64,000 nt of DNA from Iphione sp. A-MEVVRFRX5 (Eukaryota). Numbering within the stretch: position 1 is the stretch's first letter; each line of letters starts with the position of its first letter. Below, one piece after another: positions 1,675-10,739 of the stretch. The position numbers were made by a program, and so were the translations under genes. The notes under the pieces were generated by a model, which saw nothing but the letters and a program-made list of their open reading frames with translations, was not told the origin of the DNA and did not search any database. The stretch covers positions 21,576,001-21,640,000 of the forward strand of contig OZ320321.1 of NCBI GenBank assembly GCA_976226885.1. Reading direction: 5' to 3'.

Positions 1675-1711
1675 TTGAATTGAATTGAATTGAATTGAAT
1701 AAACCTTTATT
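1675..1711 (-). repeat. LINE 3' tail: AATAAA followed by (ATTCA)5
   Basis: The plus strand shows TTGAA x5 at 1675-1699 and TTTATT at 1706-1711. Short tandem-repeat tails are typical of CR1/L2 elements. Confidence 0.8.
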
Positions 1712-2764
1712 AACCAATCTTCGTCGATTCGTACAAAGTTCTCCTGGTCAATCATAAGGGAAGAATAACATTGACAGTAGCACAGAAATTGGACACAAGC
1801 ACAGTCTGGTGGACACCACATGTAATTTGACAGGACATTACAGTTCACACATAGGGACATGCACAACACAACGGATAATGTAACACACAACTATCTATGT
1901 ACATATGACAACTGGCGTTGGACCAAAATTTACATGTTCCTGTACAATTCAGGTCCCACCTATCCGTAGATAGGTACTTTCCTTTAGTTGACTGTGGCAT
2001 CGTGTTGCATAAATTCCAGCATCCAAACAGCTACAGTTGTCCGCTCCGCCATGGTCACCAGTAAGACACATGCTGCATTCAAGAAACATTGAACTGACTA
2101 TTTATGGATGGTGTCAGCTACTACTCTATCTAGCCAGAGTGCGCAGCACCCAAGTTACGTATATCGAAGATTTATTAGAAGTGTTAGGACTCAGAGGCAA
2201 GAGAACTTACATAAGCTTGTGCTATGAGACGAACATCAACAATATCTCCCGCTAGTATAGCACCTCGTACTCGAGATTGGCTTACTCCACTACTATGTTT
2301 GATCCTATAGGAGCAATAGCAATGCATCACATGGAAACCTAGGCTTCCTATCCACATACCACACCATATTGCTGTCACACAGGTGCAAGTTGGGCTTGGC
2401 CCATAGTATTGCGTTTCGTTAATGTCAGACGTATGTATTTTGCTGTGTTTGTCATACTCGCCCCCTTAATTGTGCCAAAATACCCACTCGTGATTTTTAC
2501 CCCAGTAACTGATGTTATGTATATAGCAGATGTTCAACCGGCCCTTATTATGTGGCACTATGAGAAAAATTGTACCGCCCCCGCTTTTATTTGGACTTTA
2601 GCATGTTCTTCACTTGCATACCAGCATACCGCTGACTTCGGTCGTAACATTCCAGTTATTCGTGCAGGTCATCTTTTACTTCTACCATCACCCCTCGTCC
2701 CACACTGATCTTGCCCTGTTTGTGTTGCTGCTCGCTTTCTAGACAATGTTGCACGAATCCTGCC

Positions 2765-5554
2765 CTACTCCACTCCCCAGTCAGCTTCAGCCTTGCATTT
2801 GAGCCACCCCTTTATTCGTGGTTTTGTTGATTCCCTTACGCTCCGCGGTAGAGAGTTCCAAGCAGATACGGCGCCGTAACGTAGGCTCATAATGAACTTC
2901 TGTGACTTGGCCCTGGGGACGCTCACTCTCATTGCCTCTCCTTCACGAGTTCTGGACTTCGAAGCCAGTGGGAGAATCCGCAGATGTGCTAGTCGGTGTA
3001 TCGCAGTAATGGCCCTGATCTCCACAATGGTTGCGACCCGATCAATCGCATACTTTGTTGCTAGGAATTTGGCTGATGTATACTTGTGGCTTTGGATCCC
3101 AACCCTGATGCACCTGTTTAGGTGAATCTGCAGATTTCTTTTGTCGGCTTTTGTGCAGCCGTACAGTAGCGCAGCTCCGTAGTTTAGATGGGTAAGGACC
3201 AATGCCTTGAATAGTCGCGCTCGTACAGCTTGGGTGAGCAGGTGTTTTACTCGGCCCAGCTTTATAGAGGCCGACCACATTTTCGCTTTGATGTCCTTGA
3301 TCTGCTCCTTAAAACGAAGCTTAGAATCTACCGTGTACCCTAGAAGTTTAGCCTTGTCTGATAGGTCCAGTTTGGTTTCATTAATAGTGAGGTCTAAGGG
3401 GGTACCCGCGGCTTTGCCAAGTACCTGGTAGCTACATTTCCCTTCACTGAGTTTGAGTCCCGTTCTATCACACCAGGTTGATATCGTATCAATGGTGTTC
3501 TGGGATGCAGCTCGTAGTCGAAGGAGATCGGGTGCCGCAACAATGACCGTGAGGTCATCAGCATAGAGTGTAGCCTCGCTATAGTCGGGTAGATGTCCGA
3601 TGACGTCATCAATTACAAGCGCAAAGGCGCTAGGGCCAAACACGGAGCCCTGGGGAACCCCATGTTCGACCTTCCTAAGGTGAGAGTCCGTTCCTTTGCA
3701 TCTGACATACTGCATACGATCCTCGAAATAGCTTGCCACCAGTTTGCGTATAGAGGCGTTCGCACCAGCCAATGATAGTCGATGTAATACCATATCACGT
3801 GGAACCAGGTCGAACGCCTTCTTCAAGTCGAAGGCCAGAAGGCTACAGTACCTCCCCGCGTTGAGTAACTCCTGTGCCCGCATTACCAGACTTACAATCG
3901 CAGTCTCAGTACTTCTTCCGGCCCTAAACCCATGTTGTTCAGGGCTGATGAACTTGGCATTCTCCATTTTTTGCATCAACTTGGCGACAAACCAGGATTC
4001 AAAGATCTTGCCCGGTAGTGGCAGGATTGAAACCGGGCGGTAGTTCGATAGTAGTTGTCGATCGCCCTTTTTGAAGATGGGGGTAACCCGGGCGATCTTC
4101 CAGGCTGCCGGGTAGTGACCGGTATCAATTATCCTCCCGTACAGTGCCGATAAGAAATCTAAAAGTAGCAGCATCAGTGGTTTTAGGATTCTAGTTGGAA
4201 TACCCCTGACGCCAGAAGCCTTTGTAGTGCGTTGCTTCAGGACAACTGGTCTCAAAGCTGCCGGACTTGGCGCAGTCAATGCAAATGTTCGTCGCCCTCC
4301 ATGAGTCATCCAGTTCTCAGAAGCTGGTGCTTTTGCTAACTTTGCAACTTCATCCACGAAGTGGTCGTTGAAACTGTCCGCGAGTGACATCTTGCCGTCA
4401 TCATCTACCTCTCCCTCTTCACTCGGCAGCGTCGGTTCGCCTCCTTTGCGGCCAAGTACTGTATTAAACACTCCCCATAACTTAGCCGAATCGTTTCCAG
4501 CACGTCTGACTTCCTCCATCCAGTGCCTATGGTGATTGTCTTTGATAGCCCTTCTCACTTTCCTATCAATGAACTTGTAGATTCTCTTTGAGTCTTCGCA
4601 GCCGTTTACTTTCCATTTGTTGAAGAAGTAGCGACGGTCAGCTATCATCTCGAGCGTCTCCGCATCTAGGTCAGGTCCATTTGTCGTTCTCCTAATGGTA
4701 CGCCATTTTTCCGGACACAATCTGTCCAGTTGTCGTCTGATGTCGTCCTCCAATTCGACCCATGCCCGGTTCGTATCATCTACAATATCCGGTAGGCCAC
4801 CATCACGAAGTGCCTGGTGCAGCTCGTCCAGAATGTTGGAGTCCCATTTTCTGGTCTTGATCTTGATAGCCTTGACCTTCGGGGCTCCTTTCTTGAATTG
4901 CAGAAGGACCGGCAAATGGTCACTCAGGAACTCCTGTTGGGCTGCAACATGGTGGTTGCCTTTGAGGTTCACCCATACATGGTCCAGGCAGTGTTCACTG
5001 TCTACCATCGTTGGGAATGATACTAGCTGAGTCAGACCAAAGCCACTAAAAAGGTCTGTTAAGCTCTGCCCTACCCTCCCTTTCGCCAGGTAATTATAAT
5101 TCATATCCCCTGCAATTATGATGTCGCAGCGACGAAGTTTCCGCAATTTCAGAAGCATATACTCCAGAGCCTTCGATGAATCCGCTAACTTGTCATGTGG
5201 AGGTCTATATACTGCCGTCAGAACAATCGGCCTGCGCTTCCCTGCTTTTATCTTAATGCACAATATCTCACAAAGACTACCCTCCATACTGCAATTCTCC
5301 ACGCTAAGGATATTAAACCCATCCCTTATGTAGACCAGTAAACCACCCCCCCTCCTGCCAAGCGTGGCACACCTATCCTGCCTAACACATTGGAATCCCG
5401 TCATACTGACCTCCCCGTCACTGTGGCTCGAATTTAGCCATGTCTCAGTTAAGACGACGATGTCAACTCTCAGGGACGAGACTACATCTCTAAGTTCAAA
5501 TATCTTTTTTCGTAAGCTACGCATGTTATAAAGAAGTAGCTTCAGAGCCCCCAT
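2765..5554 (-). CDS. LINE ORF2: apurinic-like endonuclease plus reverse transcriptase, 929 aa, no stops or frameshifts
   Basis: APE motifs YNMRSL, DIVVLTETWL, GGGLLVY, VYRPP, IIAGDMN, CLDHVW, SDH. RT motifs YRPVSILP, QHGFRAGRSTETA, FDLKKAFD, GVPQGS, YADD, LLGYTVD. CR1/L2-type C-terminal WNSLP. ATG at 5554. Confidence 0.97.
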   Translation of the reverse strand: MGALKLLLYNMRSLRKKIFELRDVVSSLRVDIVVLTETWLNSSHSDGEVSMTGFQCVRQDRCATLGRRGGGLLVYIRDGFNILSVENCSMEGSLCEILCIKIKAGKRRPIVLTAVYRPPHDKLADSSKALEYMLLKLRKLRRCDIIIAGDMNYNYLAKGRVGQSLTDLFSGFGLTQLVSFPTMVDSEHCLDHVWVNLKGNHHVAAQQEFLSDHLPVLLQFKKGAPKVKAIKIKTRKWDSNILDELHQALRDGGLPDIVDDTNRAWVELEDDIRRQLDRLCPEKWRTIRRTTNGPDLDAETLEMIADRRYFFNKWKVNGCEDSKRIYKFIDRKVRRAIKDNHHRHWMEEVRRAGNDSAKLWGVFNTVLGRKGGEPTLPSEEGEVDDDGKMSLADSFNDHFVDEVAKLAKAPASENWMTHGGRRTFALTAPSPAALRPVVLKQRTTKASGVRGIPTRILKPLMLLLLDFLSALYGRIIDTGHYPAAWKIARVTPIFKKGDRQLLSNYRPVSILPLPGKIFESWFVAKLMQKMENAKFISPEQHGFRAGRSTETAIVSLVMRAQELLNAGRYCSLLAFDLKKAFDLVPRDMVLHRLSLAGANASIRKLVASYFEDRMQYVRCKGTDSHLRKVEHGVPQGSVFGPSAFALVIDDVIGHLPDYSEATLYADDLTVIVAAPDLLRLRAASQNTIDTISTWCDRTGLKLSEGKCSYQVLGKAAGTPLDLTINETKLDLSDKAKLLGYTVDSKLRFKEQIKDIKAKMWSASIKLGRVKHLLTQAVRARLFKALVLTHLNYGAALLYGCTKADKRNLQIHLNRCIRVGIQSHKYTSAKFLATKYAIDRVATIVEIRAITAIHRLAHLRILPLASKSRTREGEAMRVSVPRAKSQKFIMSLRYGAVSAWNSLPRSVRESTKPRIKGWLKCKAEADWGVE

Positions 5555-6261
5555 TATGGTGACCTGTAGTATAGTGCTGTTCAGTCAGTTGATATGTGTA
5601 CTAGGCTCACCACTACCCCGCGTCTGAGCTAACCTGACATGTGCATGACTAGAAATAACACAAACATAAGCATATAAATAACAGCGTATATTCAATCAAT
5701 GGGTCACAAAATAGGTGAGACATTTTATGATCATGACAGGTGCATAGACATGTACTATGTCAAAGAAATAAGACACACTAATTTAGCATACACTAGGAAC
5801 TTCGATGGTATTATATGGGTGTCATCCGGTGGTCAAGAGTGATTTTTACAAGTTAGTAGTGTGTATTATAAATGAGATTATCCCTGATTACATAAGGAAC
5901 TTTTGGAACATAGCAGAAGTCGTTATTATTCAATAGTTGTCTTAATCCACTCATAACGTATCATCATTTTCATGCAAAAATTTGTAATGATATATTACCC
6001 AGGCCAGGACTGCGAATTAGTCAACTAAGCTATGCAGTAGGCCTCATAAGTGAACATTCTTGAATAATGAGGGAGAGTCACATAACCTGTGATTTACCTC
6101 GCACCTCCCCTAAATGCGTGACAGTACAAGTGGCAATAAGTAATTTTGGGCATACTAGTAACGTATTATCAAAGGTCGACGTACATTTCAGAATCGTGTG
6201 TACTGTTAGATCTTACACTATGAGTATACCGTTAATCCTCCAGTGTGTTATCGCTTAATGT

Positions 6262-6999
6262 TCATGCACAGTGTCCATGCTGGTTAGCCTGGCCAGTTTG
6301 GTAAAGACCAGACCTTACCTTGGCGGCAAATGAGATCAAGAAAGCTGTTATCCTTGTCGCCCACGCAGTCGAAACGCTTTCATGAACATGGATTCCACAG
6401 TCAAGCAAAAATTCACCCTGTACTGTGACTGAGCGACCTGCATACTTGTTCACTGGTAAGTCCAGCCGGGGTGGCCACAGATTGATAGGTATGGCATGCA
6501 TATCGCAGAAGATGTTATGTGTAGATACTAGTGCATTCACCACCATCTCCATCTCTGGATCGATGCAGTCCGGCTCGATCCTACCTACGTGGAGACCCGC
6601 GATTGGGCAGCATAGTAGGTATGGACCAGTCCCCATCGGGCCCCGAGCCCAGGCGCTCAGTTTGTTGACGTAGTACTTAAGCGACTCCAGATAGGCACTC
6701 GGTCCACTGTACCTTGGTGACCACTGCCCGAACTCACACTTGATAATTTCTTTGTGGCCTAGCGCTATAACCACCAGATCATAAATGGTTACATCCACAA
6801 ATAGACGACGTTTCCATATACGTTTGTATGTACCCTTCTCAATGTTGAGCACATGAATCATCATAGTTGGTAGATTGCTGTAATTTAACTTCTCCACCGC
6901 TTTCACAACACGGCTGTCCACTATCAGTAGTACTCGGATAACGCGCTCATTGGGATCTGCACCTCCTGACGCGATTGACCATTCTAGGACACAAAGCAA
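6262..6999 (-). CDS. SGNH/GDSL hydrolase (esterase)-like protein, 245 codons, middle ORF of the LINE
   Basis: Block I-like VLLIVDSR (Ser29), block III-like YDLVVIALG, block V-like LDCGIH followed by an AWATRI helix, in the order and spacing expected for SGNH domains. The ORF-track start is TTG. The first in-frame ATG (codon 46) lies after the putative catalytic Ser. Confidence 0.7.
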   Translation of the reverse strand: MLCVLEWSIASGGADPNERVIRVLLIVDSRVVKAVEKLNYSNLPTMMIHVLNIEKGTYKRIWKRRLFVDVTIYDLVVIALGHKEIIKCEFGQWSPRYSGPSAYLESLKYYVNKLSAWARGPMGTGPYLLCCPIAGLHVGRIEPDCIDPEMEMVVNALVSTHNIFCDMHAIPINLWPPRLDLPVNKYAGRSVTVQGEFLLDCGIHVHESVSTAWATRITAFLISFAAKVRSGLYQTGQANQHGHCA

Positions 7000-7340
7000 A
7001 ATGGCATTTCAAAAACAGCGCAGCAACATAAGTTGTCAGCTCATACGATATGACTAAATGAGTTTAATGAGAAAAATTTTCCCTTGTCGGTGTTATCCAC
7101 TATTACCTTACAACAATCATCTATTTCAGTTATAACATATGATTTGGACATTACTTACAGCTTTTCTGTGACCGCGCAATACTTCATACGATTTCATTAA
7201 ATCAAAATCTTAACAGTCCTGACAATCTCGAAACAACCACGCAGAACATGTGTAAACCATGACACCACCTTTCTCGATATTGATTTGTACACTTCTTTAC
7301 CAACCACACGGAGACCCCTCTCAATGTTGATAGCGAATTA

Positions 7341-8513
7341 CTACGTAGAATCACGTATTTTCATTAGCACCCTTCCTAACATGTTACTCCCGCTGTGTGT
7401 AACCGGTTCCGACCAGTCACCCGATATAGCCTTCCCTGAGCCTAAAGTCGCATCTCTGTCAGCATAGATTAACTCTTTCGGAGAAGTTTCTTTTAACATA
7501 GACAAGCATTCTGGCGAGTACCGGAATTTAGCACGATAAATTGATTCAAGTGTTACCTCTGCACTCTGATCCCATTCTGTGTTTGTTGCAATTTTACTAC
7601 CCACTCGTCTTGCCTCTACACCGTATCTTGCCTTCTCAATGGCCTTGACACTGACACCATCCTCACAAATACGCGACTTGCAACACTGATACGCCATTTC
7701 AACCGAATCGTAAACAATACCCTCGTAAACCATCGGCAGATATTCCATAGGGTTTAGTGCCGGTGTGTCATTGGCAAAAATTAATTTTTCGCCTCGGTCC
7801 AACGTGGAGTTGAGAGCCGGATTAATGTCGTCCGGCAGGAAATCCTCCTCGGATGGTCCGTAGTGGACTCCGTCAACAACCACATCGATCCCTTTGACAA
7901 TCGCGCGTTTTCCCTTGCCTTTGGCGATGGCCGCGATCCTTGCTTGCCTCCTATGTTGGTCAGCTGATCTTGTAGGGATGTCCTCGCGGAGAAACACATT
8001 CCTGTATCGTGGCATTCCTCCCATCTTCGACCGGTTTCTCAGTAGAGTATTCCTCAAGTACTCAGAGTGCATGGCTACTCCAATCCTGTGTTTGTTGGCC
8101 GCATCCCCAAGCCGGAATACTTCCATCACGCTGTCACGTCTTAGACCCGCGACCTCCCAGATCATTCGCAGAACAAACTGCCAGGGATCCTCAGTAGCTT
8201 GTGAACTGACTCCCTCTAGAATCACAATGTGTGATCTGGAGGCAATTTCCATTCTGGATAAATCCTCGTCGAGACGGGTGCTCTTTATTTCAACGCTAGA
8301 CAACCGTGCATCGATAGCGTCAACCTTCGCTGTCAGGCCTCGCTGCAGTGTGGGCTCCGCCGATAATGCTTCCAATGTCTCCTTTAGAGCAGTATTCTCG
8401 GCGCGCAGATTAGCCACAGTAGCTTTTAGGCCGGCAATTTCTTGTTCCGTAGACATTTTCAGCTCTTCAACCAGTCTCAGGATCGCCGCTGTCCCCGTCA
8501 GCTTACCTGGCAC
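7341..8513 (-). CDS. LINE ORF1: coiled coil + L1/Tnp22-like RRM-CTD + C-terminal NADAR (YbiA-like) domain
   Basis: Heptad-rich aa 11-92. RSHIVILEGV, FRLG and NVFLREDIP resemble L1-type ORF1p RRM/CTD. aa 244-388 carry the NADAR motif series (SVEMAYQCCK, EARRVG, WDQ, RAKF, LKETSPKELI, DATLGSG, GSNMLGRVLMKIR). The ORF-track start is GTG 8513; the first ATG is 8456. Confidence 0.92.
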   Translation of the reverse strand: MPGKLTGTAAILRLVEELKMSTEQEIAGLKATVANLRAENTALKETLEALSAEPTLQRGLTAKVDAIDARLSSVEIKSTRLDEDLSRMEIASRSHIVILEGVSSQATEDPWQFVLRMIWEVAGLRRDSVMEVFRLGDAANKHRIGVAMHSEYLRNTLLRNRSKMGGMPRYRNVFLREDIPTRSADQHRRQARIAAIAKGKGKRAIVKGIDVVVDGVHYGPSEEDFLPDDINPALNSTLDRGEKLIFANDTPALNPMEYLPMVYEGIVYDSVEMAYQCCKSRICEDGVSVKAIEKARYGVEARRVGSKIATNTEWDQSAEVTLESIYRAKFRYSPECLSMLKETSPKELIYADRDATLGSGKAISGDWSEPVTHSGSNMLGRVLMKIRDST

Positions 8514-8537
8514 ATTGTCCCAATTTTAAGCAATCTG

Positions 8538-8575
8538 AATGGGAATTTGATTGGTTGATTCCCATTATGACGTCA
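8538..8575. promoter_or_regulatory. CCAAT box inside a 9-bp inverted repeat, plus a CRE palindrome, just upstream of ORF1
   Basis: AATGGGAAT (8538-8546) and ATTCCCATT (8558-8566) flank TTGATTGGTTG; TGACGTCA at 8568-8575. Function is unproven. Confidence 0.35.
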
Positions 8576-8677
8576 CAAACGATAAAAATGTATTGCTAGT
8601 ACCATTTTTTTACTGCTGGCGATCAGTCCATTGTTGTAAAAAGGGTTAAATTAGTGCAAAAGTTAGAAGCGATAGGA

Positions 8678-8704: not shown

Positions 8705-10739
8705 TACCACCGGAAAAACGTTATACTTTAGGTCTGACCATTCTATATTTTTGGTTGTATATAATCTTGCCTTCTCTCTAGTCTCTACTGTATAAACATA
8801 TCATATTAATATAGATCCTTCAACAAAAACTACCTATCCACCGATTACTGCGTCCCAGATGACATTGTAGGATGCCCAGAACAGTCACATTGGGCCAGGA
8901 TACTGCTCTCTCCATATCCAATCATATTGTAATATGTCTAAGTCTAGCAGAGTGCTGGCAGGTAGAAGGGTCAAACAGATGACAAAATGAAGAATCAGTT
9001 CACTCCAATAGCATGGAAAATAGTTGTGCATAGGGTGATCATTCTCGTAGGTGCAAAGAGGAAGATGCTTACTTGTATACTACATGGTTACATTATGGTT
9101 GCTAAAAATAGATGTACTATCTAGACATATGTCTGGACTGGAGGAAAAGGCATAATCATTATATAACTTATGGTAAAGTTAGCTACCAACTTCTGTTGCA
9201 CCATAGACATACGTGTCGTAGTTACCTTATTGCACAAAACCTATCTATGTAGTACGATCCAAGTCAAAACTGAAACAGACCCTCTGATGCAGATTGCTGG
9301 ATCATTTCCGGACAGATCCCTCAGTGAATGGATGGACCCACGACAATAGGTTATAGGATATAGAGTCTGATAATGAAGCCTCTTGTGGACCGAAAGTCCT
9401 TAACCATTGATAGAACTATAACAATGACCATAGGGAGATGAAAGAAGTATACTGTGGTGGAGGACCCTTAAGACAATACAGTCATTTATGTAATGAATCA
9501 CTGTTTTATTCTCTAACCTAGGTTACAGAGCAGGAATTCTGTATTGTACGATATATATTTATTTGCATCCATGTTGTTCATTATGCAGAGTCCTAATGAA
9601 CGCTGGCTCTAGTAGTCATAACCCAGTATCGAGCAACATCTCATTCTTGAAACTGTGCACTTTATAAAACTTGGAAGGTACCTCTGTATTAGAGATCATA
9701 AAAGGCAATGGTACAGTGTACTAGATGTCAGTACACATCAGCAGTTTCTAGTGGTGTGCGGGGAAGTGTTTTCGAGAGCGTCACTAATTCAATCGGTGAT
9801 TTTATGCCTACATTAATCAACACACCTAAGAACTGGAGCAGGCTGAGAAGGACACAAGGAAAACTACGCACAAATATAAAAGAGTCATTATTATGCATAG
9901 ACAGATCTAGTCTTGCTTAGACTCTCCTTACAGCACCGCAACCATCAAGCAATTCGCAGTCCAAGCCATCTGCCAGCCTAGGTAAATACAATAACACAGT
10001 TACATCCGCTCACACACCGACATTACGAAGCCCAATAGTTAAGAGAACCGATTAGGAATAGATACCAAGAGTTCAGTCAGCGTCTCCATCAACTTACTCA
10101 TGTGCAAACGCTGTCCTGGTCGTCTACGCTGAAACAAAACCCTACACATTAGCATACGTAGTGAACACATTCACTAAAACACATTTACGCTCACGGCCCA
10201 ACGCACAGAGAGATACACATGGATATCTCGCCCCCTCCCCCCCAAAAAAACATTTTTTAAATAACACGAAAAAAATTAGAATTCCATGATCAAACAAACA
10301 GACGAACTTAGACATCCCGACTCACAGACACACACACACACTCACTAACAAGTACCCATTATGTCCTCTCAGTGTACCTCATTACCACTAGAGTAACGCG
10401 AGACGAGACTTGTCATAGCCAATCAGAGCGCAGCATGCTGTATACGGTCTGCCGGGAACGGTCCCGCGGAAAAAGAGATGCATTCTGGGAGGACTATACT
10501 GCATCTCATTGCCAGGTTGCTAGCAGATCTGGAAAAGGCGGATCCGTAAATCACAGTATATTTGACTCGCGAGTCGTAATCAAATCTGCGGCTGCGGTCG
10601 CAATTCGAGACGATTTATCCAGAGCTAACGTTCTCAGAAGGTTTATGCATATTTTTGCAATATCATGTCTAAATCCAGACAGGCTGATACTGAACTCAAC
10701 CAGTGGACACTGATATGTACACCTAGCAGTTTATTATTT

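Follow-up and report, generated by a model that had tools for sequence, protein, structure and literature searches.

A three-gene LINE family in Iphione with a predicted spliced middle gene and a possible ribosome shunt to ORF2

How the second open reading frame (ORF2) of long interspersed nuclear elements (LINEs) is translated is an old open question that has been solved for few elements. In SART1 and LINE-1, ORF2 is expressed from a polycistronic unspliced RNA by termination-reinitiation, across an overlapping stop-start or a 63-nt spacer (available part of PMC5972666). Here we describe a LINE family from Iphione sp. A-MEVVRFRX5, represented by one copy in a 64,000-nt stretch of contig OZ320321.1 (assembly GCA_976226885.1, positions 21,576,001 to 21,640,000; hereafter the window, with coordinates counted from its first nucleotide). 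The element and all three of its long frames lie on the minus strand. Its ORF2 would likewise be made from a polycistronic unspliced RNA, but it is preceded by an extra gene, whose stop codon lies 494-1,814 nt upstream, depending on the lineage.

Several components of this LINE have been described elsewhere. The zebrafish element ZfL2-1, a CR1/L2 LINE with an SGNH esterase, resembles it in having an ORF2 with an apurinic/apyrimidinic endonuclease (APE) and a reverse transcriptase (RT), a short-tandem-repeat tail and an SGNH-fold accessory protein; its esterase is a domain of ORF1p behind the coiled coil, with conserved active-site residues (PMC3905857, in the portion available). In the Iphione LINE, by contrast, the SGNH protein belongs to a separate, apparently spliced third gene whose start is nested in ORF1, the nucleophile position (assigned by motif position) is Ser in 26/58 sequences, and ORF1 ends in a NADAR domain. 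A NADAR domain likewise occurs in retrotransposon proteins of an Ectocarpus Gypsy element and in ORF1 of oyster Tx1; these belong to other clades, and the accessible part of the source mentions no third gene or splicing (PMC12477816). There are precedents both for NADAR in a LINE ORF1 and for SGNH domains in LINEs. The ribosome shunt of CaMV (cauliflower mosaic virus) and RTBV (rice tungro bacilliform virus) uses a short ORF that stops six nucleotides short of a stem, together with a landing site (PMC2241666, as far as its text is available). The full-length Iphione element is alike in having a 5′-proximal short ORF that ends a few nucleotides before a predicted stem, and a putative landing zone before the target ATG. 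Within the open literature, including the available parts of PMC5972666 and PMC5009743, we found no LINE with a shunt layout, an intron or a third gene made by splicing; neither subscription journals nor Repbase Reports fall within this scope.

On balance, we lean towards a combined reading in which the window holds a 5′-truncated copy of a three-gene LINE, the middle gene being spliced from a transcript of an internal promoter, and ORF2 being reached by ribosomes that are shunted across a long-range stem. The three-gene architecture of the family is strongly supported by the sequence comparisons. The fuller proposal, that an upstream ORF (uORF) triggers a shunt over 3.2-4.5 kb and two genes, and that a spliced pseudo-esterase gene, run from a promoter and start codon overprinted on ORF1, has outlasted the transposon and been retained in the host on three or more occasions, is more tentative.

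The comparisons cover 114 genomic regions, 34 found by DNA search of the same genome and 80 through protein matches, the latter chosen from 150 scored matches among 2,493 candidates; one of the 114, L064, is without the element. Tallies per copy are limited to those that could be mapped at the position in question, and the copies are related, some being near-duplicates. Where possible, we therefore give counts by lineage (33 lineages with <85% nucleotide identity in the middle ORF, from 53 near-complete elements).

The middle gene, its predicted intron and the 5′ boundary of the window copy

The features that bear on the middle gene and on the limits of the copy are as follows.

1675..8503, minus strand: 5′-truncated recent LINE copy, 99.6% identical to its sibling L031 over 6,822 nt
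8504..8623, minus strand: host flank (a separate repeat), outside the LINE, with ATG 8515, GTG 8513 and a donor at 8507/8506
7341..8503, minus strand: ORF1 codons 91-477, with a coiled-coil-like region and a C-terminal NADAR domain at ~7733-7350 (Pfam PF08719, E 8.8e-17)
7557..7575, minus strand: coding mini-exon of 19 nt, with an alternative-frame ATG nested in ORF1, ending at the donor GAG/GTA (phase 1)
6984..7556, minus strand: predicted GT-AG intron of 573 nt, covering the end of ORF1 and a spacer
6262..6983, minus strand: second exon of the middle gene, with a predicted product of 246 aa after splicing; SGNH fold, atypical catalytic set

The acceptor at 6984/6983 reads YAG/AR in 103/105 copies and in all 33 lineages. 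Homology of the middle ORF begins at this site, which is preceded by a stretch with a pyrimidine fraction of 0.74, and exon 2 opens in phase 1. The matching ATG (7575) and donor (7557/7556) sit 950 nt within the element, where they are overprinted on ORF1. Val407 of ORF1 is encoded by GTA in 33/33 lineages and is the most constrained of 563 four-fold columns across the three ORFs (mean 0.39-0.46); the codon that precedes the donor is GAG or CAG, its third base being G in 32/33. In 33/33 lineages the third base of codon 400 is A, whichever residue it encodes (E, K, T, A or another), and together with the following Trp codon it forms the ATG. This start has G at +4 in 33/33 lineages and a purine at -3 in 30/33, and it lies 19 nt upstream of the GT in 71/82 aligned copies. 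The pattern ATG-N14-AG/GTR was found in 85/105 copies vs 19/315 control windows, many of the misses being copies that lack this part of ORF1 or carry point changes. The predicted product of the window copy opens MGSECR-EWSI across the junction, with donor and acceptor phases that match.

In the aligned copies, then, the middle gene has its ATG, donor and acceptor conserved in matching phase, and with the pyrimidine tract they have the make-up of a spliceosomal GT-AG intron, which is very likely removed in vivo. Between lineages with only ~45-60% identity in their ORF2 proteins, the LINE would thus have retained both the overprinted start codon and a spliceosomal intron. Four observations weigh against this reading. 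The donor scores low, for the most part 0-3 bits with a generic matrix; a CTRAY branch motif precedes the acceptor in 4/33 lineages; in 15/33 lineages the unspliced frame, too, has an in-frame ATG upstream of the acceptor; and the spliced junction had 0 matches as genomic DNA in a search with one degenerate 26-nt pattern, which covers E-[YF]-R-E-W-S variants only.

Other donors were considered and rejected: a GC/GT site at the KGKGK motif of ORF1 is not kept in all lineages, a site at 7420 occurs in 7/18, and one at 6318, near the end of the middle ORF, is lost in divergent lineages. A join from the uORF motif MADE to the middle ORF is out of frame.

The original prediction had placed the donor elsewhere. 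It proposed that a single donor, CAG/GTAAG at 8507/8506, is spliced to alternative acceptors, one opening the SGNH ORF at 6984/6983 and the other at 5564/5563 just before ORF2, in a retrovirus-like strategy. All of the motifs quoted are present in the window, including CTGAC at 5588 and 7039, and the two joins read MCQVTIMG (8507 to 5563) and VPEWSI (8507 to 6983), as claimed. The donor, however, is outside the element. Identity with L031 spans 8503-1684 and ends at 8503; beyond this point L031 has 90 more ORF1 codons, up to the true start MGKK, plus a short 5′ untranslated region (UTR), and at the position that matches the proposed donor it has ORF1 codons 90-92 and no GT donor. Window 8514-8623 matches an unrelated repeat at L064. 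Since sibling homology ends at 8503 and unrelated DNA lies upstream, ATG 8515, GTG 8513 and CAG/GTAAG are insertion-site DNA, and by this comparison the LINE copy is truncated at 8503. The ~340 nt absent from it comprise the uORF, the 5′ UTR arm described below and ORF1 codons 1-90.

The acceptor proposed for ORF2 fares no better: an AG stands at that offset in 1/33 lineages, and 9/33 have an open YAG of any kind in frame within 60 nt, whereas the ORF2 ATG is conserved in 33/33. Moreover, the GT at the true 5′ end of the family is in phase 2 and out of frame with the phase-1 middle acceptor, and the additional donor-like sites are either non-conserved intron sequence (7158, 7106) or lie within the 3′ arm of the long-range helix (5610). 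With no element-borne major donor and no conserved ORF2 acceptor, the scheme is already contradicted as a mechanism for the family. A chimeric RNA from the flanking repeat is conceivable at this single locus, and we regard the scheme as a whole as extremely improbable. It is a junction artefact built around one true site: the acceptor at 6984/6983 and the SGNH fold of the ORF behind it have stood, and the donor and the start codon have not.

The insertion is flanked by two host repeats, at window 8514-8623 and 8920-9300. The former has what we take to be CRE-, CCAAT- and TATA-like motifs, and this LINE copy might be transcribed from it.

Predicted pairing between the 5′ end and the region before ORF2

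Full-length elements have at their 5′ end a uORF of 3-5 codons (MADE, MATE, MSE or MARSE), which we found in 28/28 lineages, with TAG (22), TAA (3) or TGA (3) as its stop, 47-53 nt before ORF1. The 5′ UTR stretch that follows the uORF stop is complementary to a stretch just before ORF2, 3.2-4.5 kb away.

5598..5621, minus strand: predicted long-range helix, 3′ arm; the window copy lacks the 5′ partner, which L031 has
5563..5588, minus strand: acceptor and branch motif of the original prediction, not conserved, within the putative landing zone
2765..5554, minus strand: ORF2, 929 aa, APE endonuclease and RT, with its own conserved ATG

When the whole element was searched, the best partner of the 5′ UTR was the site just before ORF2 in 16/18 close relatives and in 15/33 divergent elements (two sets that share two elements). 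Over 28 lineages, the mean duplex energy was -30.0 kcal/mol for cognate arms vs -20.3 kcal/mol for non-cognate arms. The cognate duplex ranked first in 12/28 and among the top three in 21/28, and 0/100,000 permutations reached the mean; an ungapped score of arm pairing agrees with the energy result, and three control regions gave no cognate pairing signal. The two arms co-vary: their sequence differs from lineage to lineage, yet they remain complementary. There is, by these measures, lineage-specific complementarity between the 5′ UTR and the pre-ORF2 region, and formation of the helix is very likely. In the 22 lineages whose duplex reaches -25 kcal/mol or lower, the first pair of the helix falls 5-12 nt behind the uORF stop (pairing was searched from +5 onwards), and 10-179 nt, for the most part ~30 (20-60) nt, separate its end from the ORF2 ATG. 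The intervening landing zone is 50-77% AT.

ORF2 begins 3.2-4.5 kb and 63-124 ATGs past the 5′ end. Because of these ATGs and of the long gap behind the middle gene, scanning or stop-start coupling to ORF2 is implausible and a special route is needed. In the route that we propose, ribosomes would translate the uORF on the unspliced RNA and stop just before the helix; they would then skip the 3.2-4.5 kb that the helix closes, land, and start at the ORF2 ATG ~30 nt after it. As to layout alone, both a 5′ short ORF near the base of a stem and a predicted stem that joins the take-off and landing sites were found. ORF1 would be translated by reinitiation or leaky scanning while the helix is open. 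We are evenly divided on whether this sequence of events, from uORF to ORF2 start, takes place. If it does, the shunt would tie ORF2 synthesis to intact full-length RNA, because RNAs that are truncated or start internally do not have the 5′ arm. In the uORF and the two short co-varying arms, the family offers a precise route to ORF2 that can be tested by mutation.

There are several points against a shunt. The stem of the pararetroviruses CaMV and RTBV spans a leader of ~480 nt, with the first ORF as the target (PMC2241666, available text), whereas here it would close 3.2-4.5 kb with two genes and lead to the last ORF. The duplex is weaker than -25 kcal/mol in 6/28 lineages and poorly ranked in L061, L098 and L107 (17, 19 and 12 of 28, respectively), and by the ungapped score the pre-ORF2 site is the best in only 25/49 elements. 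The distance from helix to ATG is variable, as given above, and 7/22 landing zones contain an out-of-frame ATG, though 6/7 of these are without a purine at -3. The filter that found the 5′ ends and the uORF set partly favours that motif.

The variation in helix strength and in ATG distance, and the ATGs in some landing zones, would be easier to accommodate if the middle gene is spliced and the helix has a role other than shunting, for example in folding or packaging of genomic RNA, in damping ORF1 or as an element like an internal ribosome entry site. ORF2 would then depend on internal entry, or on another internal promoter, for which the spacer between the middle gene and ORF2 is long enough, and the middle gene already has an inferred internal promoter. 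Such a role would leave unaccounted for a uORF that is retained at a constant distance whichever of the three stop codons it uses, and a helix whose base falls 5-12 nt behind the uORF stop and whose end mostly falls 20-60 nt before the ORF2 ATG; a conserved acceptor before ORF2 is also absent. We consider this alternative possible but doubtful. In the same spacer, a poly(A) signal was found in only 11/33 lineages.

A GT spans the last codon and stop of the uORF in 26/28 lineages, and a weak donor there (GA/GTRR) is possible. The helix might then juxtapose this donor with an acceptor near the ORF2 start and so give a uORF-ORF2 fusion, much as sORF 1 is fused to ORF IV in RTBV (PMC2241666, same part); a phase-compatible YAG does occur at +35 or +38 of ORF2 in 22/28 lineages. 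These YAGs, however, stem from a coded N-[IV]-R-S motif and shift between the two positions, their use would remove the first endonuclease strand and a conserved Asn, and the ORF2 ATG and first 11 codons are conserved. In addition, L074 and L078 have no GT, and some lineages have no AG between the helix and the ATG. A fusion of this kind is very unlikely, and a shunt to the ORF2 ATG is the route that we retain.

The 5′ end of L031 (oriented 1570-1590) and of its relatives begins with AAGATGGCGG. This looks like the YY1/TISU initiator and the human L1 start, a likeness that could explain translation from an ATG so near the cap.

A candidate internal promoter and loci that keep only the middle gene

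Extra synonymous constraint surrounds the middle-gene ATG, at CGCG, TCAAGG(T/C)CA and AACCGGTT motifs.

7899..7909, minus strand: CGCGCG motif at ORF1 codons 290-291, under synonymous constraint, candidate element of an internal promoter
7670..7679, minus strand: TCGCG motif, codons 367-368, candidate promoter element, retained in loci with a dead ORF1
7640..7648, minus strand: TCAAGG(T/C)CA motif, codons 376-378, 20/33 lineages
7401..7408, minus strand: AACCGGTT palindrome, intron and ORF1 end, 18/33 lineages

We assume the CGCG motifs to be promoter-like, TCAAGG(T/C)CA to resemble a nuclear-receptor monomer site and AACCGGTT to be a Grainyhead-like site. Within 400 nt upstream of the middle-gene ATG there is no conserved acceptor (at most 5/28), and the 5′ UTR shows no pairing just before that ATG. 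Three groups of loci have an intact middle ORF and a persisting mini-exon, with ORF1 and ORF2 decayed or missing: a group of 10 (L062, L077, L080, L084, L086, L089-L092 and L096), a group of 8 (L110, L112, L116-L119, L124 and L127) and a group of 4 (L114, L120, L122 and L131). The four such loci that were read by eye retain some or all of the promoter-candidate motifs.

Because there is neither an upstream acceptor nor 5′ UTR pairing, and because the mini-exon and the motifs outlive ORF1 and ORF2, an internal promoter is the simplest inference. RNA would start within ORF1, and the intron 7556-6984 would then be spliced out; a promoter in this position probably drives the spliced middle-gene RNA. 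Alternatively, the full-length RNA might yield the middle gene, if it is spliced upstream or if another shunt leads to ATG 7575. The constrained motifs might also reflect RNA structure, since codons 290-292 could pair with 366-368. Against this, an upstream acceptor is not conserved, the 5′ UTR does not pair before ATG 7575, a local conserved RNA fold in ORF1 was unconvincing when the alignment was folded and was rejected, and the middle-gene unit persists in loci where no spaced uORF turned up. We therefore judge expression from the full-length RNA to be quite unlikely and keep the internal promoter.

For six pairs from two of the three groups, dN/dS of the middle ORF is 0.06-0.11. Such purifying selection after the decay of ORF1 and ORF2 suggests repeated exaptation of a protein that has no sequence relative in the databases searched. 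Repeated exaptation is, for the loci themselves, a possible reading. Homology between their flanks often extends over several kb, and several of the loci lie on the small contigs C5 and C6; segmental duplication is a possible source of this flank homology. At L122, ~1,480 nt past the start of the middle ORF, there is a relic of the pre-ORF2 arm that matches the L123 lineage, which suggests that a once complete LINE decayed in place.

The middle protein, classification and remaining features

A structure model of the middle protein from a 58-sequence alignment reached a pLDDT of 90.6; it replaced an earlier 13-sequence model that was poor (pLDDT 40) and uninformative in fold search. The model matches SGNH/GDSL hydrolases (Foldseek E 8.9e-07; Z 14.8, root-mean-square deviation (rmsd) 2.7, 172 aligned), and the predicted structure is an SGNH fold. 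Transposon esterases known so far have a strongly conserved active site (PMC3905857, portion available). The signature of an active esterase of the ZfL2-1 type, with conserved Ser, Gly, Asn and Asp-x-x-His, is not found here: block III is GHxE, and block V is (D)CG[IL]H, with His in 56/58 sequences and Cys three residues before it. Judging from these motifs, the protein is likely a non-catalytic or atypical SGNH protein.

No sequence relatives of the middle protein were found in Pfam, in a 5.8-billion-sequence set at near lengths or in a 1.84-billion-sequence profile search, nor in PDB sequences, the Atlas or metagenome contigs. It shares the SGNH fold with the OSK domain of Oskar (PDB 5a4a; Z 11.9, rmsd 3.3, 170 aligned), which is not its closest fold match; the homology shown goes no further than the fold. 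The OSK domain binds RNA. Lipid or RNA binding by the middle protein is a guess. OSK has been called a non-catalytic SGNH domain (PMC3905857, same portion).

The element is, by its sequence, an APE-type LINE (a retrotransposon without long terminal repeats): ORF2 encodes APE and RT, and its copies are dispersed, with 5′ truncation and a 3′ tail. The best hits of the RT are 29-38% identical, none of them named to clade, and the best named ones come from birds, at 32-38%. Most LINEs of birds are CR1, and the element probably falls in the CR1/L2 group. Its 3′ end is as follows.

1675..2764, minus strand: 3′ UTR, with AATAAA at 1711-1706 and an (ATTCA)n tail

ORF1 has a region that we presume to be an RRM/CTD, and a search for ORF1 relatives gave no match. 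Near codons 58-60 of ORF1 in L031, a short ACGCGTCC motif is conserved among close relatives within an otherwise variable N-terminal region.

Window 42125-42883 and 49036-49645 hold a (GTG)n array, which gives a Thr-rich pseudo-ORF, and a 310-nt tandem duplication; there is no further long ORF between window 11,000 and 64,000. The copies at L038, L049 and L059 are interrupted or adjoined by long unrelated ORFs (570-1,100 aa), which are probably other transposons.

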